From the NCBI GenBank assembly GCA_023920165.1, contig CP089274.1, forward strand, positions 5,518,001-5,582,000: a DNA stretch of 64,000 nt, written 5' to 3'. The translations under genes were made by a program, and so were the position numbers. Each line of letters starts with the position of its first letter. The first letter of the stretch is position 1. Positions 51,712 through 58,627 of the stretch are shown one piece after another. The DNA is from Curvularia clavata (taxonomy: Eukaryota). The notes under the pieces are model-generated. The model was not told where the DNA came from and did no database searches. It saw nothing but the letters and a program-made list of their open reading frames with translations.

Positions 51712-54085
51712 ATGGAGTCGGAAATCCGCACTCAGATTCCCAACATTGATCCCGTTCTGTCAGAGTATTCGGCGGGCTACCTGACGCATGCGGCTAACCA
51801 GTTCACCTCTGATTCGGACCCCAATGCCCCTTCACCGCTCGATGAAGCCGCCGCCACTGTGAGCGCACTGCTCTTATCGGCGTCTGGCGACGTCTCGACC
51901 CAGAACCAGGCGGCCATCCAGAACCTTGTTGACAAATTCGTCTCTCGCCTGAGCTCAGCCAATGGTGCCGATGGAGAGCGTCGCCAGATGGCGCCTTCTG
52001 CCAAGAAACTCGATCAGGCTATCCACGTGGGGTCATCGAAGAACATGTCCTCTACCATGGGCCTGGCTGGTGGCGCTGTGGATCTCGAATCTGCCAACAC
52101 TCGCAAAGTCGAGTCCAGGGTCGACCGCAAGAAGCTTGAGAAAGCCGAACGCAAACTGCGTGCCAAGCAGGATCGCAAAGAGTTCAAGAATGTTGAATAC
52201 GAGGCCTCGAGGCTTCTTCACGAGCCCAATGAGACTCAAAGCTACGAGGAGTTCTACATGGCCGTCAACCCGCTGCAACTGGGTGACTCTGCCAACAAGA
52301 GCAAAGACATCAAGATTGACAGCTTTGATCTTTCCATGCCTGGCCTACGTATCCTGACTGATAGTTCTTTGACGCTTGCATACGGCCGAAGATACGGTCT
52401 GGTTGGTCAGAACGGTATTGGTAAATCGACATTGCTGAGGGCCCTTTCTCGTCGTGAGGTGCCTATCCCAACGCACATTTCGATTCTCCACGTAGAACAA
52501 GAGGTCAGGACCAACCAGTTGCTCCCGCGACTACTCTAGGGCTAGCTTGCTGACTTTCTATACAGATTACTGGTGATGACACACCAGCACTGCAGGCTGT
52601 TTTGGATGCCGACGTATGGCGAAAGCATCTTCTTAGAGAGCAAGACGTACGTGATTGCTAGCCTCAACCTCGTGGACAAGGTATGCTAACGATTGATAGA
52701 AAATCTCCAAGGAACTTTCAGAGATTGAGGCAGAGCGTTCCACTCTGGCAGATACCTCTGCTGATGCTGAGAGGCTAGATAAGCAGCGTGAGGGTCTTGA
52801 CACTACCCTCAGCGACATCCACGCCAAGCTTGCAGAGATGGAGTCAGACAAGGCGGAATCAAGAGCCGCCAGTATTCTTGCTGGTCTTGGTTTCTCGCAG
52901 GAACGACAGCAATTTGCCACAAAGACCTTCTCCGGAGGATGGAGGATGCGATTGGCATTGGCGCGTGCGCTCTTCTGTGAACCCGATTTGCTGCTACTCG
53001 ACGAGCCGTCCAACATGTTGGACGTTCCCTCGATTACCTTCTTGGCAAACTATCTGCAGGGCTACCCAAGCACTGTCCTTGTTGTATCTCACGATCGAGC
53101 GTTCCTCAACGAAGTCGCCACGGACATCATTCACCAGCACTCCGAGCGTCTGGACTACTACAAGGGCGGTAACTTTGATTCGTTCTATGCCACTAAAGAG
53201 GAGCGCCGCAAGACGGCGGCACGAGAGTACGAGAAGCAAATGGCAGAGCGGGCGCATCTGCAGGCTTTCATTGACAAGTTCCGGTATAACGCGGCAAAGT
53301 CTTCGGAAGCGCAGTCGAGGATCAAGAAGTTGGAGAGGATGCCTGTCTTGACACCTCCAGAAGCCGAGTACTCTGTTCACTTCAAATTCCCCGAGGTGGA
53401 GAAGTTGTCGCCTCCGATTATTCAGATGAGCGGAGTGACGTTTGGATACTCGCCCGACAAGATTTTGTTGAAGAATGTAGATCTGGACGTGCAGCTCGAC
53501 TCGCGTATTGGCATCGTTGGCCCTAACGGTGCGGGTAAGACGACAGCATTGAAGCTGCTGATTGGCGCACTCCAGCCAACCACGGGTATCATTTCACAGA
53601 ATCCGCGACTACGCGTGGGTTTCTTTGCACAGCATCACGTCGACGCGTTGGATCTCAACGACAGCGCCGTTGGGTTCATGTCGAAGAAGTACCATGGCAA
53701 GGCTGACGAAGAGTACCGTCGCCATCTCGGTGCCTTTGGCATCACGGGTATGACGGGCTTGCAGAAGATGGCACTGCTATCCGGAGGACAGAAGTCGCGT
53801 GTCGCGTTTGCGTGCCTGGCCCTGCAGAATCCGCATATTCTGGTGCTCGACGAACCGTCCAACCACTTGGACATTGAAGCCATGGACGCGCTTTCGGATG
53901 CATTGAAGAACTTCCAGGGTGGTGTGCTCATGGTCAGCCACGACGTGACGATGCTCCAGAACGTGTGCACAAGCTTGTGGGTGTGTGATAACGGAACAAT
54001 TGAGCACTTTGACGGCACCGTCAAGGACTACAAGCGGCGGATCACAGCTCAAGCAAACGAGGTGGGTGTCGTAGCCAAACATTAG
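51712..54085 (+). CDS. GCN20: ABC-F protein Gcn20/ABCF3 (activator of Gcn2)
   Basis: Exons 51712-52503, 52566-52646, 52700-54085. Two ABC cassettes (GQNGIGKST / FSGGWRMR / LLLDEPSN and GPNGAGKTT / LSGGQKSR / LVLDEPSN), no transmembrane segments, Gcn20-type N-terminus. Confidence 0.95.
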
Positions 54086-54566
54086 AACTAGCTGTGAGAG
54101 GTGCAACACGGCAGACGGATGCAACAACAAGGCTTGCTGGCATTGAGCCCAGCAGTAGCGTAGTAGAAGGCTTCTGCAGCGTCCACAAACATGTGATGAA
54201 GTGCCTCTTTGGTGTTGTGATATCCTATGGGACGGCTTCTGTCCTCTGGTTGGGGCGAGGCTGGCGGGCGCGCTAAACCCAAAGGAGACGCCACCTGAAC
54301 TGACTACCCAGACCTCCGCGTCCAACATCGACGGCCGCTCGTCCCTCGCTCCACCTCTGCCAACCAGCACGACCCAAGCAGACACATTCACTCGCCCTCT
54401 GCCCCTTTCGCTCCCCGAGCCCGTCCACTGTCCGCACCCTCATGCGCGCTGCTGTCCCGCGCTTCATTCCACCGTGCGCTGCCGTTTAATTGACAGCGCC
54501 TATTAGCGCGCTTGCCCCTTCGCACTCCATCGCCTTGCCGTCCGATACACACGAGCTACCGGCACC

Positions 54567-56176
54567 TTGTCTCGCACGCAGGCTCCCAGCACAGACGGCT
54601 TGTCCGTAGTCACTCCTTTGCCTCCGACTTGCAGTCAGCGCTCCGCGTCTCCCTCACCGTGTACCGTCACTGCTCCCGCCCAAAGCAATCCACTATCGGC
54701 CACAGTTGGCGAATCACCGTATCCCCCTCCCTTCTCCTCCCTCTACTTCCCGCCCGACGACGCCGAGGAGAGTGACAAGTCCCAAGAATCCTCAGACGAC
54801 GATTCGCCGCCTGCATTCACTTCTGCGCCCGCCTTCACCGAGTCGTCGTCTTCGGCTGCCGCTGTAGCTGCTACCAAGGCCGCTCTTCCACACGACACCA
54901 AGGACGGCTCTAGCAGCAAGGACATTGACGACGGAGAACCGCCGCCACCCTACAGCGAAGGATCCAGTCCGCTCGAGTCCTTTACCTACGTCATGGCATC
55001 TGCAGGAGGTCCCGCGAGTATCATCACTCAAGTCTCGCAAACAAGTGCTGGGCCGCCAATTAACACGCTCGGCGCATCTGATGAGAATATTACTTTGGAG
55101 CTGAGGTGCATACCTATCTCCATCTAAAATTATTCAGAAACTGACATGGTTCCTAGGGGCACGCGATTCACTTTGTCTCGGGATGAGCTTCTGACTCTCC
55201 CTGAATTCGTCCTCCTCTCCCTCTTTCCCAATGGTCTGCTTCCCGATGGCCACATGAACTCTTATCACGAAGGGGACGTATACCCAGTCGACGTTGGTAA
55301 TCCCGTTTCTTCTTCTCCATCCCCTTCCTCCCCCTCGCTTCATCGGCCACAGTTCCCAGGATTCTCAAACATCTCCACACCCCTTCATTATACTTATCTG
55401 ACAATGTCTATTTTTCACAGTATGATCCAAACTCTTTGCAGTACATGCTGGAGTTCTTCCGCAATGTAGCTCAGACTATCCCGTCATCACCCTCCCCGAC
55501 GACGAGCCCAGAGCACACTGCCGAAGCAGTGCCCATCGAGCCCATGCACGGCTCTGCAAGAGACATGCTGCAGGACCGCGCTGGTATAATTGTTCTTCGT
55601 GAGGACCTCGACTTTTATGCCATTCCACCTCACCGAGATATCACCCAGCCGGAGATGATTGAGGTCAAGCGAGCTGCGGGCGAAGCGTTGTTACGGCAAG
55701 ACGGTATTTTCTCTGGACTGAGGAAGAGCGAGGAGCCGGGCACGACTGAGCAGCACCTTATTGAGATGTTGACTGCAGGGTGAGCACACTCTTGTGATGA
55801 TTACTGTCGTTTGCTAATGAGAAGTAGTGGTTTCAACCACGATGATCGATGGGGCCATCGTGCCGGTGAGCCCAACAAAGCCGTCATCTGCAGTATCGCT
55901 CTTGCGCGCTTGAGGACAGACATCAAGGGCAATGAGTATGCTAACAGCAACGCCGTCGGCATGGCGCAGAAGCTGCTCCTTTTCTGGAGGAAACCAGCTC
56001 GTCGCTGCTGGTGGGAGGGAGTGGAGCTTGAGAACGTTCGAGGCGTCGAGGGCAAGCTCAAGGTATGGATAAGGAGGGTCTGGACGCTGGAAATGGTACG
56101 TTTTTGCCTTTGATTGTGAGGATCTTGGATGGAATATGCTAACATCGGACCGCAGAGCGTCATTGGCCTTCGTTGA
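54567..56176 (+). CDS. WHI2: Whi2-like BTB/POZ phosphatase activator; first in-frame ATG at 54993, proposed upstream TTG start at 54567
   Basis: Introns 55106-55156, 55293-55420, 55780-55827, 56096-56155. Motifs 'LRGTRFTLSRDELLTLPEFVLLSLFPNGL', 'IIVLREDLDFY', 'EQHLIEML', 'QKLLLFWRKPARRCWW', 'RRVWTLEMSVIGLR*'. The start codon is uncertain. Confidence 0.9.
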
Positions 56177-58627
56177 AATGCCTTGGGTGTGTTGTTTGCG
56201 ACTCTAATCATTGGCGGTGTTTTTCTCTCTTCTTGCATGATGTGTCTCACTCTCAGCCATCGTTGCATGCTGACGGGAAAAGAACATCGGCTCTAGCTCC
56301 CTTGCCATCGTTGTTTCCCTAGTGTTCGTTTTGATACCTCTCTCTATATATTGGCCCCCTCCCCCAATTATCCGCCCCCTACTGGTCTGTGTAGGGCAGC
56401 GAACTTGTTGTCGCCCATCATCACCACCACCACCCCTTTTTTTCTCTCTCTCCCATAGCAAGCGTTTTGGCATCATAGGGTCTTTTCTTCCTGTTTTATT
56501 TACCTTGCGAAAATAATCTATGGACACCCAGGCACAAACACAGACACAGAGTCGTACATGTACGGTAGATATATGTATGCGTCTTTGTATATTGTCCTTG
56601 GCTTGCTGTTTGTTCGTTCCTTGCCCTTGGTACTATTGAAAGCGGGAGAAGAAGAAAAAAAATACATTTGTGCAGAGGGTGATGCGGATAGGTAGGCAAG
56701 TAAATTTTAATAATATTCTTTCTCCTAACAGCTACTTTTCTAGCTGCATGTGTGCGTGCATGACACACCCCTTGTTCTTGTGCCAGGTTTGTCGGGTCGT
56801 GTCAGTGTCATGCTGTAGAAGTTTCTTTTTCGCTTTCAGGTGTGCCAATGTCAAAATCTGCATGCATGTATGTATCTGTCTGTGCGTGGGTACATGCGTT
56901 TACGGGAATGGAAAGACAGGCATGGAGGAAAGTTTGACATGGGAATGTTGACATGGGTAGTTTTAAACGTGTGGCTGGGAAGGTTGTACGAGGCGCAAGA
57001 AAAGAAACGCGTGGGCTTTGTTTCACGTTTGCTTCTTTTTCGGTTGTGGCGTTTTTAAGTTTGTGTTTTCGTTCGCGTGGATGGAGGACTGGGGTAGGAT
57101 GGAAGGAAGAAGGAGATGGGGAGAGGCGGTGTGAGGTCACGTATACAGTAGTGTCTTGTTTGAGTGGAAGGGGACATTGGGATTCTGTTTCACTAGCGAA
57201 AAGAAGAACATAAATTAGTTGGGAATAGTCGTTTGTGTTATATATCGTGATATCTCGCATTTGTTTCATCATGCCGTTCTTAGCAGATCCGTAGAGAGAG
57301 TTGTGTGGGTAAGCTGTATATTAAAGAGTGGCAGGTGATAATCCGATGCGTGATCTAACATGAGTAGGTACAACATGTTTTTTGTGGGAATTGAGTCTAT
57401 TTCCCTCGTGATATGAATATTTTACTTTATAAGACATATAGAGGAAGATCGCCCTCTCATCTCAATGAACAGGTATCATGACGACAACGACACCTTCCTT
57501 TTTGAAAGTCAAACTGCGAAGTCACCACATGCCAAGGGAACGTACTCACATCACTCAACCACCCCAATTAACCAAATAGCAAAGAGGAAAAAAAAACTAC
57601 ATCGAAAACAACACAGCAACACGTGGTATCCGCTGCACGAAAATCGCCTCTGGGACTGCATACACTACTGTTACCCCAACCGAGAAAAGCAAAGCAAAGG
57701 AATAGGCAAAAGTAACGCTTCTGGTAATTAGCTGTCTTTCTATATATATAGAAATACTAAGACAGATGCATATAGCACAGCAGAATTGTGTAACCTATTA
57801 TACACATGCAACGTACATGTGCACGGCATGCATATTTGTATTCAGAGTGGAGAAAACATACGCTTACGTGCATGTATATGTACGCATGTAAGATTATATG
57901 TGTATGCATGTCAATATGTAGGTACGTGGGTATATGTGTAACAGTAGTAGTGATAGCAAAGAAACCATACTAGAACGAACCTGCGATATTTCCCTACATA
58001 CCAGGAAAGAAAGAAGCGTGTATAAAAAGCATGTAAATAGGCATGTGTTTGGTTGATTTAAGATTCTCTTCTATTGTTTCATTCTCAGCAATAAAGCGCG
58101 AAAGAAGGGCGTTGTAAGAGAGGAATACTACTACAAATGACATATGTAAGTAGGTGCCTGTAAACACGGCTATGGAACGATATTTCAACAAGGGTTGCCA
58201 TTGTACAGGTATCACACACCCAAGGTTGTCAGAAACGGGCCTGTGCAAGTTATTGAACACATATCAAATACACATACATTGGAAAACTTCACATGTGACA
58301 GCACTTTGGATAAACACGATAATAGCCAGAGGCGGGCATGGAGACCCGTCATTACTCTGCATTGTTCAGTCTGCTTTTATACCAGCAGATCTGTGACTAA
58401 TCCTATGCTGCGTGTAGAACCGCAGTCTATTGCACTCTTACATTGGGTATCATCCTCATCCTGACCATGGTTGAAGGGTCAAGTAGATGATATGCAAAAC
58501 AACGCCTTTTGAACAACCGGACCCCGTCGAGCCCCAGGCTCGCTATGCCGTTGAAGACAGAAACTTTTTTTCGAAGTGGTATCATAACGTCGTGTTGAAA
58601 CTTCCCAAACATGGAACAGTAAGAAAT

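Follow-up and report, generated by a model that had tools for sequence, protein, structure and literature searches.

PTEN-L, FGF2 and MYC are animal examples of N-terminal extensions that begin at a codon other than AUG. In yeast, the upstream starts of GRS1 (UUG) and ALA1 (ACG) give longer isoforms, and the added stretches, a few tens of residues in length, are mitochondrial targeting signals. Conserved non-AUG extensions with the same comparative signature as the one presented here have reportedly been found in animal genes (the work is that of Ivanov et al. in Nucleic Acids Res. in 2011). For Pezizomycotina, the available part of a further report (Ivanov et al. 2017, mBio, PMC5487733) describes near-cognate-initiated N-terminal extensions of cpc-1, the gene of the CPC1/GCN4 homologue, with initiation shown in vitro. 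Here we describe a gene from the same subphylum, WHI2 of Curvularia clavata, which probably has a TTG-initiated extension of 142 residues, so that a 440-residue long form and a 298-residue short form of the protein would be made. The gene lies in a window of 64,000 nucleotides (nt), the whole stretch of DNA analysed (contig CP089274.1 of assembly GCA_023920165.1, positions 5,518,001–5,582,000); coordinates below are window positions.

Results

An open frame precedes the first ATG of WHI2

On its 5′ side the WHI2 frame is closed by an in-frame TAG at 54504–54506. From 54507 to 54992 it then runs through 162 codons without a stop, and the first in-frame ATG is at 54993. Upstream ATGs on the + strand are found at 54119, 54191, 54196, 54227 and 54442, and over 54445–54992 no frame contains one. 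Reading 3′ from the TAG, the TTG at 54567 (context ggcaccTTGtct) is the first near-cognate codon in frame; it lies 142 codons 5′ of ATG 54993. WHI2 has five exons; from TTG 54567 to the TGA at 56174–56176, with the joints seen in RNA, there are 440 codons. The resulting 440-residue model is identical at 427 of 440 positions to P0001, a protein from an open reading frame (ORF) called on a 2043-nt metatranscriptome contig. The features of the gene are as follows (uORF, upstream ORF; X1, X5, X8 and X11 are RNA contigs described below).

54350–54566, + strand: 5′ leader of the WHI2 mRNA (X11 starts at 54363, X8 fits from 54350, X1 and X5 are colinear throughout; the 5′ limit is a weak hint)
54442–54489, + strand: short uORF of 15 codons, MRAAVPRFIPPCAAV and a stop, in the weak context ctcATGc, 125 nt 5′ of the TTG
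54504–54506, + strand: in-frame stop TAG
54558–54572, + strand: putative start site accggCACC-TTG-TCt, with the TTG at 54567–54569; first near-cognate codon, conserved together with CAC at −4 to −2
54567–54992, + strand: predicted N-terminal extension of 142 codons, ATG-free in all frames and Ser/Pro/Ala-rich (called from substitution rates, ATG depletion and composition)
54595–54607, + strand: small candidate hairpin ACGG-N5-CCGT, starting at +29 from the TTG
54720–54749, + strand: conserved motif YPPPFSSLYF
54873–54902, + strand: conserved motif TKAALPHDTK
54927–54992, + strand: most conserved block, DDGEPPPPYSEGSSPLESFTYV, with PPPPY at 54939–54953 and PPxY at 54942–54953
54993–54995, + strand: internal ATG in the strong context gtcATGg, start of the 298-residue short form and the usual annotated start
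54993–56176, + strand: WHI2 core coding region (first exon edge at 55105, then 55157–55292, 55421–55779, 55828–56095 and 56156–56176; stop TGA at 56174–56176)
55106–55156, 55293–55420, 55780–55827 and 56096–56155, + strand: WHI2 introns, all four joints seen in RNA contigs

The extension evolves as protein

We collected relatives in two ways. The extension query (162 residues) was compared by profile-free HMMER with 1.84 billion cluster representatives, which gave 123 proteins at E ≤ 0.001 (46 at ≤ 1e-10); their best-matching stretches begin at query residues 13–127 and end at residue 161 or 162 (one weak exception, 153). Metagenome contigs of the Joint Genome Institute (JGI) were also scanned; of the 193 relatives found there, we retained the best 80 together with their DNA, amounting to 68 distinct sequences. 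The scan that fetched these 80 loci used EPPPPY[ST]E and Y[VL]MA[AST]AGG[PA] as peptide patterns. By best BLASTP match, the nearest named relatives of the 68 sequences are Dothideomycetes (44), Eurotiomycetes (15), Leotiomycetes (5) and Lecanoromycetes (4).

Comparison of the window with 13 Pleosporales-like loci over the TTG-to-Met stretch gave ratios of non-synonymous to synonymous substitution (dN/dS) of 0.13–0.39 in frame 0, whereas the same aligned nucleotides gave 1.07–3.92 in the +1 and +2 frames. Purifying selection is thus frame-specific in 13/13 pairs. Changes between the window and the Pleosporales-like loci are concentrated at third codon positions (for example 25/14/53). Moreover, alignment gaps 5′ of the TTG are not multiples of three, and 3′ of the TTG 8 of the 13 loci are gap-free. 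The open frame and the Met are kept in 81/81 sequences (the window and the 80 loci), the Met motif being found once the pattern was relaxed, and an in-frame ATG is absent from 68/68 distinct loci over 67–226 upstream codons (some of these ORFs run off the contig). On these comparative grounds, the extension at 54567–54992 is real coding sequence.

The initial annotation of this DNA had described a frame open from 54507 to the first ATG at 54993, the lack of any + strand ATG between about 54445 and 54992, and an extension that reads like protein. Coordinates bear out the first two statements, with zero ATGs in any frame, and the third agrees with the presence of YPPPFSSLYF, TKAALPHDTK and PPPPY and with the in-frame dN/dS of 0.13–0.39. 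The orthologues, in which it had proposed to look for stops or frameshifts, keep the open frame under purifying selection and conserve the near-cognate codon.

The same results bear on another reading of 54507–54992, as an untranslated leader conserved at the RNA level ahead of a protein that starts at ATG 54993. It is typical of 5′ untranslated regions (UTRs) to be ATG-free, and the internal Met is the first residue of 28 of 80 named models and, in the available part of its description, of Neurospora crassa WHI-2. However, this reading is hardly tenable given the frame-specific purifying selection with its excess of third-position changes and an open frame kept in 68/68 distinct loci. Furthermore, the amino-acid motifs persist from class to class although synonymous changes have saturated the DNA, and an Rfam search over 54000–55200 gave no family match.

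The TTG is conserved as a codon

We aligned 65 distinct upstream ORFs with MAFFT; at the column of 54567, 35 rows have TTG and 2 have GTG. We chose 39 candidate loci by the presence of an AC-preceded TTG or GTG 120–175 codons 5′ of the Met, so that A at −3 and C at −2 are selection conditions; C at −4, which was no such condition, is present in 39/39. The context reads CACC-TTG-TC in 22 of these loci, CACG-TTG-TC in 6 and CACA-TTG-TC in 3 (together 31/39), and the remaining contexts are CACG-GTG-GA (3), CACG-TTG-AC (2), CACC-GTG-TC (2) and CACC-TTG-GA (1). In 15 Pleosporales-like sequences, nucleotide conservation anchored on the TTG extends for ∼9–10 nt upstream (aCCGgCACC) and is then lost. 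The in-frame stop lies 4–86 codons upstream, varying by locus.

Where the residue in the motif T-[L/V]-[S/T/D] is Leu, it is encoded by TTG in 29/30 loci. By comparison, TTG is used at three other conserved Leu positions of the extension in 0/56, 0/65 and 0/39 cases, and at all other extension Leu codons in 49/301. Judged from these codon counts, the start TTG is conserved as a codon and not as an amino acid, and translation most likely begins at this conserved TTG at 54567.

Three further observations concern the surroundings of the start. The three conserved extension leucines nearly avoid NTG codons altogether (TTG 0/160, CTG 1/160), which may reflect avoidance of further near-cognate starts. 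An upstream ATG lies 90–160 nt 5′ of the start in 31/37 relatives compared with 61% of background windows, a modest enrichment, and the relatives' uORFs are 2–24 codons long with no conservation of the peptide. For the hairpin at 54595–54607, 71.9% of alignment cells are paired, which 58/500 shuffles match; its covariation score is matched by 14/500, and an A-U to G-C double change is seen in 4 related rows.

The spacer to the internal ATG is free of ATGs in every frame

Taken alone, this one GC-rich sequence is only mildly unusual in its lack of ATGs: it has 0 where dinucleotide shuffles predict 2.6, and 4.6% of shuffles also have none. The weight of the case therefore lies with RNA and with the relatives, in which the shortage of ATGs far exceeds chance. 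Between the candidate start and the Met, the 68 loci contain 2 ATGs in 26,772 nt, and 67/68 contain none; the expected number is 101 from dinucleotide shuffles and 105 from reshuffling of codon order. Over the whole in-frame upstream ORF, 59/68 loci lack an ATG in any frame, and the few ATGs lie 5′ of the candidate start, except in locus L078. The coding sequence after the Met has 21–22 ATGs per 897 nt in four spliced contigs.

The internal ATG at the end of this spacer is itself strongly kept. It has G at −3 and G at +4 in 59/68 loci, and the Met is invariant in both protein alignments (A1 and A3). Among the 123 unbiased representatives the Met is kept in 119; PPxY followed by Met is likewise found in 119/123, and 107 of these 119 have no other upstream Met. 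Protein function cannot account for the absence of out-of-frame ATGs, which is expected if ribosomes that pass a weak start must reach the next AUG. We read the ATG-free spacer and the strong internal ATG as the mark of leaky scanning, and infer from the sequences that both the 440-residue and the 298-residue forms are made.

It is unlikely, in our view, that only the long form matters, with the TTG, or else a near-cognate codon close to it, as the only start and the internal ATG encoding a conserved Met at which no translation begins. The Met does lie within the most conserved protein block, where it could be kept for function, and one relative (P0193) has Leu at this position. But out-of-frame ATGs are missing too (2 observed against 105 expected with the same codons reshuffled), the internal ATG stands in a strong context in 59/68 loci, and a near-cognate codon with T at +4 would not be expected to capture all ribosomes.

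P0193 deserves a remark of its own. It reads SFSYLLAAAGG at the place of the internal Met, and the ORF called for it (MSETRDPSDGS) has its first residue precisely at the place of the conserved Leu/TTG. Should the underlying DNA have an ATG there, P0193 would be a natural experiment for leaky scanning.

RNA contigs run through the extension and show no upstream ATG exon

We compared Logan contigs from four public runs with 53000–56800. The runs are not recorded as RNA, and RNA origin was read from the intron joints: contigs from the 4 runs lack all four WHI2 introns and thus derive from spliced RNA. Within 53000–55103 these contigs have zero joints, no ATG-bearing upstream exon and no 54062/54506 splice. 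Two of them, X1 (4770 nt) and X5 (4077 nt), follow the genome colinearly from the ABC-F gene on the 5′ side across the intergenic DNA into WHI2, and still contain the stop of ABC-F as well as the in-frame TAG. X11 (2042 nt) starts at 54363; X8 opens with unrelated letters and matches from 54350 onwards. RNA covering the whole extension therefore exists, and contigs extend at least 204 nt 5′ of TTG 54567. Spliced metatranscriptome contigs of relatives (L019, L020, L021 and L026) have the same layout. This colinear RNA without an upstream ATG exon is strong but not absolute evidence. It also answers two alternatives raised with the original proposal, in that the contigs contain no ATG exon, do not use the TAG at 54506 as an acceptor, and reach well 5′ of 54567.

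Two of the relatives' contigs come from one organism, L026 (1–497) and L019 (1–545), and differ by a 12-nt in-frame insertion and a one-base change in the length of a T-run. The T-run change breaks the extension frame in L026 and is probably an assembly or sequencing error.

Some transcripts could still have an unseen ATG-bearing exon upstream, spliced into the extension frame and initiated conventionally. Contigs show presence and not absence, rare isoforms are dropped from them, and 49 of 80 named models invent such first exons. Yet there is no joint 5′ of 55103 in the 4 runs or in the 4 spliced contigs of relatives, and even within one family the invented first peptides lack conservation. 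What marks the onset of conservation is the TLS codon with 9 nt of context, not a splice acceptor, and the TTG is kept as a codon. We consider such an exon very unlikely.

The gene next to WHI2, and the far end of the WHI2 transcript, complete the layout.

52700–54085, + strand: last exon of an ABC-F gene (ABCF3/GCN20-type; Pfam ABC_tran and ABC_tran_Xtn), separate from WHI2, with stop TAG at 54083–54085; RNA contigs retain 54062–54506
56177–56691, + strand: 3′ UTR of WHI2 (RNA contigs end at 56662–56691)

This neighbour allows another reading of the extension, as the C-terminal part of an ABC-F–WHI2 fusion spliced from a donor at 54062 to an acceptor at 54506. A phase-0 GT donor at 54062 would indeed join in frame to the AG at 54505–54506, the last two bases of the TAG, and this is how predictors build an ABC-F–WHI2 chimera. 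Such chimeras make up 64 of the 120 longer matches listed (many database models are of ∼1220 residues), and X1 and X5 run across both genes. However, the two-gene contigs retain 54062–54506, including the ABC-F stop and further stops. The junctions of the chimeras vary (...AQANEAGV|APDPDG..., ...TMLQN|RACPFEL..., ...GGVLM|RACPFEL...), and some delete conserved ABC-F sequence. Moreover, stand-alone transcript contigs of ∼2 kb exist, and the AUG-less extension is also kept in relatives that have a different gene upstream. A genuine fusion is thus improbable in the extreme.

The continuity of X1 and X5 over the 420-nt intergenic stretch suggests overlapping UTRs or read-through, and a two-gene contig is not proof of a single transcript. 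The ABC-F/WHI2 pairing appears to be kept across Dothideomycetes, judged from ∼60 chimeric database models of ∼1220 residues; sources call the ABC-F protein ABCF3 or 'regulator of translational elongation'. The WHI2 3′ UTR is long (∼500 nt), with C-rich and T-rich tracts.

The extension carries a conserved PPxY motif

The extension is rich in Ser, Pro and Ala, and contains the conserved short motifs PPPFSSLYF, PPAF, TKAALPxDTK and, most strongly conserved, DDGEPPPPYSEGSSPLxSFTYV. The columns of the PPxY block are invariant in the A1 and A3 alignments, and among the unbiased representatives PPxY[ST]E is found in 111/123, as PPPY in 85 and PPAY in 26. An AlphaFold model of the 440-residue form, made with 38 aligned relatives, is unreliable (mean predicted local distance difference test score (pLDDT) 45.2, predicted template modelling score (pTM) 0.27); in this low-confidence model, residues 1–172 have no secondary structure and pLDDT 25–46. 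Neither the extension and exon 1 nor P0001 matched Pfam, residues 1–160 gave no result in the ESM Atlas, and a PDB sequence search gave one chance match only (E 0.54).

PPxY is a ligand of the WW domains of Nedd4/Rsp5 ligases, and the motif would accordingly be predicted to recruit a WW-domain ligase of the Rsp5/HulA type. The yeast Whi2 papers that mention Rsp5 (PMC5482819, PMC9210300) give no Whi2–Rsp5 link in the parts available. In the available part of an Aspergillus nidulans phosphoproteome, AN10545/WHI2 has sites at S103–S111 only, which say nothing about the N-terminus (PMC8399174).

A second PPxY-type motif, SPPPQYP or SPPPRYP, is present in Leotiomycete-like and more distant relatives (P0198, P0210, P0228, P0230, P0237, P0241, P0372 and P0426). 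It lies ∼100 residues 5′ of the invariant one, and the extensions of these proteins are longer (250–310 residues).

The core is Whi2 and is annotated inconsistently

Residues 143–440 of P0001 match Bcwhi2 of Botrytis cinerea B05.10 at E 8.7e-160. The P0001 core also matches the 'general stress response protein Whi2' of Diplocarpon, Ramularia and Fonsecaea, and 'WHI2-like protein P4H10.16c', at E values of ∼1e-153 to 1e-159. By this strong full-length similarity, the core is a member of the Whi2/WHI-2 family. It has no Pfam match and no PDB sequence match, and the label 'BTB/POZ' rests on source names and on a paper (PMC6987382) whose available part gives N. crassa WHI-2 (NCU10518) as 297 residues with BTB/POZ domains. 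The closest named protein (P0349, Exserohilum turcicum) is also 297 residues long and starts MASAGG.

The absence of an ATG start leads public annotations to truncate WHI2 or to fuse it to its neighbour, the failure expected of gene finders that require an ATG. The 80 named stand-alone proteins comprise 28 that begin at the internal Met, 49 in which the extension follows a non-conserved first peptide, and 3 of other kinds. Models from Sclerotiniaceae, for example, differ up to the TLS motif (MYGKDATTLSNTQ..., MWSTTLSNTQ..., MPRAITLSNTQ... and MVYRNWLNTNSPKISATTLSNTQ...). The 64 chimeras among the 120 longer matches listed exceed 900 residues; in them the extension follows sequence from another gene, in most cases the ABC-F neighbour. 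Their junctions vary from one annotation set to another, and conserved ABC-F sequence is lost in some. A search for proteins of near-equal length returned only metagenome exon-1 fragments. The initial annotation had suggested that many orthologues are annotated from the internal Met. That is true of the 28 named proteins and of N. crassa WHI-2 (297 residues in the part of the source available), and not of the 49 that carry the extension.

Names have gone astray in parallel. The 297-residue Whi2 of Exserohilum turcicum is named 'ATP-binding cassette', many JGI exon-1 fragments are named 'ABC subfamily F protein 3', and Eurotiomycete Whi2 proteins of 295–584 residues are named 'dipeptidyl-peptidase III' (the misnamed set comprises P0349, P0001, P0242–P0348, P0384, P0399 and P0106). 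The chimeric models are the likely source of these wrong Whi2 names.

Discussion

We consider the following account probable. The WHI2 mRNA would begin at least ∼200 nt 5′ of TTG 54567, and scanning ribosomes would pass the short, weakly placed uORF at 54442–54489. A fraction of them would initiate with initiator Met-tRNA (Met-tRNAi) at TTG 54567, in its CACC context, and make the 440-residue long form, whose first 142 residues would be a Ser/Pro/Ala-rich tail with conserved short motifs. The remaining ribosomes would scan through 426 nt that selection appears to have kept ATG-free in every frame, and would initiate at ATG 54993 (gtcATGg) to make the 298-residue core form that is annotated in databases. 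This was the central proposal of the initial annotation, a TTG start with leaky scanning and two isoforms, and the comparative data support it: 2 ATGs are observed where ∼101–105 are expected, the internal ATG is strong in 59/68 loci, and the RNA is colinear.

Several points weigh against this account. Because retrieval of the 80 loci was pattern-based, the invariance of PPxY and Met among them is partly by construction, and because the loci share descent, the counts are not independent events. The DNA-level assessment covered loci nearest to the four classes named above. Contigs drop rare variants and cannot fix the transcription start, so that a minor spliced isoform supplying an ATG is possible. 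Among the relatives, P0193 has Leu for the internal Met, and P0197 and a few long models have an in-frame upstream Met. The start codon itself also varies. Seven Eurotiomycete-like loci read ACC-ACG-GCG-TTG. Three more keep the ACG, but the TTG is replaced by CTG in one of them and by TTC in two, which favours the ACG as the start in these three; at the homologous place, Mycosphaerellales-like loci have ACG-GTG-GAT and two loci have AAA-GTG-TCC. The G at −3 of the Eurotiomycete-like TTG and the TTC in two loci imply that the nearby ACG may be the start there, and the exact start codon may differ by clade. Finally, the preferred +4 base reported for Pezizomycotina, in the available part of PMC5487733, is G. 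TTG 54567 has T at +4, so its context is good and not optimal: the description 'optimal' given to it at the outset holds at −3, −2 and −1 (A, C and C) and fails at +4. Initiation at TTG 54567 is thus a step that we infer from comparison.

Could the arrangement also act as a switch? A uORF, a near-cognate start 75–125 nt further on, a 426-nt ATG-free spacer and a strong AUG might together form a nutrient-sensitive isoform switch, although we regard this as doubtful. Scarcity of ternary complex (through Gcn2 and eIF2-alpha phosphorylation) or a change in stringency through eIF1/eIF5 would then shift the balance between the PPxY-bearing long Whi2 and the short one. An Rsp5-type ligase would set the turnover or location of Whi2, so that translation status would be fed back to TORC1/Psr signalling. 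The conserved adjacency to a GCN20-type ABC-F gene in Dothideomycetes would, in that event, be more than coincidence.

The two-isoform account has consequences that do not depend on a switch. Under it, the arrangement is ancestral to a large part of Pezizomycotina; the feature is shared by relatives nearest to four classes and is not special to the Curvularia clavata genome. Studies of the part that Whi2 plays in regulating stress response, TORC1 and cell fusion, in yeast, Neurospora, Botrytis and plant pathogens, use protein models that begin at the internal Met. If the account is true, native Whi2 in a large part of the filamentous ascomycetes has a longer form with ∼140–170 extra residues and conserved motifs including PPxY, and constructs or tags that start at the internal ATG miss or disrupt it. 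It would also explain a systematic annotation error, in the form of truncations, invented first exons and chimeras with the upstream gene, and would offer a clean natural case of near-cognate initiation with leaky scanning, with a single conserved TTG and an ATG-free spacer.

Within the literature searched, which left most subscription journals outside its coverage, there is no description of a non-AUG start for Whi2, and the cpc-1 paper (PMC5487733) and its supplements, in the parts available, make no mention of whi-2. The studied orthologues are of the core only. Bcwhi2 (294 residues) is 84% identical over 97% of the 298-residue core and Exserohilum turcicum P0349 is 97% identical, and both models lack the extension. 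N. crassa NCU10518 is likewise an orthologue of the 298-residue core, and its annotated model, in the part of the source available, lacks the 142 upstream residues.

Structure downstream of a near-cognate codon can favour its use. According to the available part of the START study (PMC11165317), structure at +17 to +32, of ∼−21.6 kcal/mol, helped CUG initiation. The candidate WHI2 stem begins at +29, inside this range, and with only 4–5 base pairs is far weaker. Compared with GRS1 and ALA1, the WHI2 extension is of another kind: its 142 residues bear motifs, are apparently disordered and show no sign of a presequence. The animal cases resemble the proposed WHI2 arrangement in yielding two isoforms from one mRNA by leaky scanning past a near-cognate start, in another kingdom and in unrelated proteins.

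The likeness to cpc-1, as far as the available part of its report describes that gene, is closer. Both genes belong to the same subphylum. In each, an in-frame ORF without an AUG precedes the annotated AUG, near-cognate codons in a favourable context are conserved, the extension is under purifying selection, and the annotations are unresolved or disagree with one another. The differences are equally clear. In cpc-1 there are several candidate near-cognate codons, the regulatory uORFs are long, and uORF2 overlaps with the extension. In WHI2 a single conserved codon dominates, the uORF is very short, and the spacer that leads to a conserved internal AUG is strictly free of ATGs. Its depth of conservation, single clean start codon, ATG-free spacer and effect on annotation make WHI2 a notable case among these systems.

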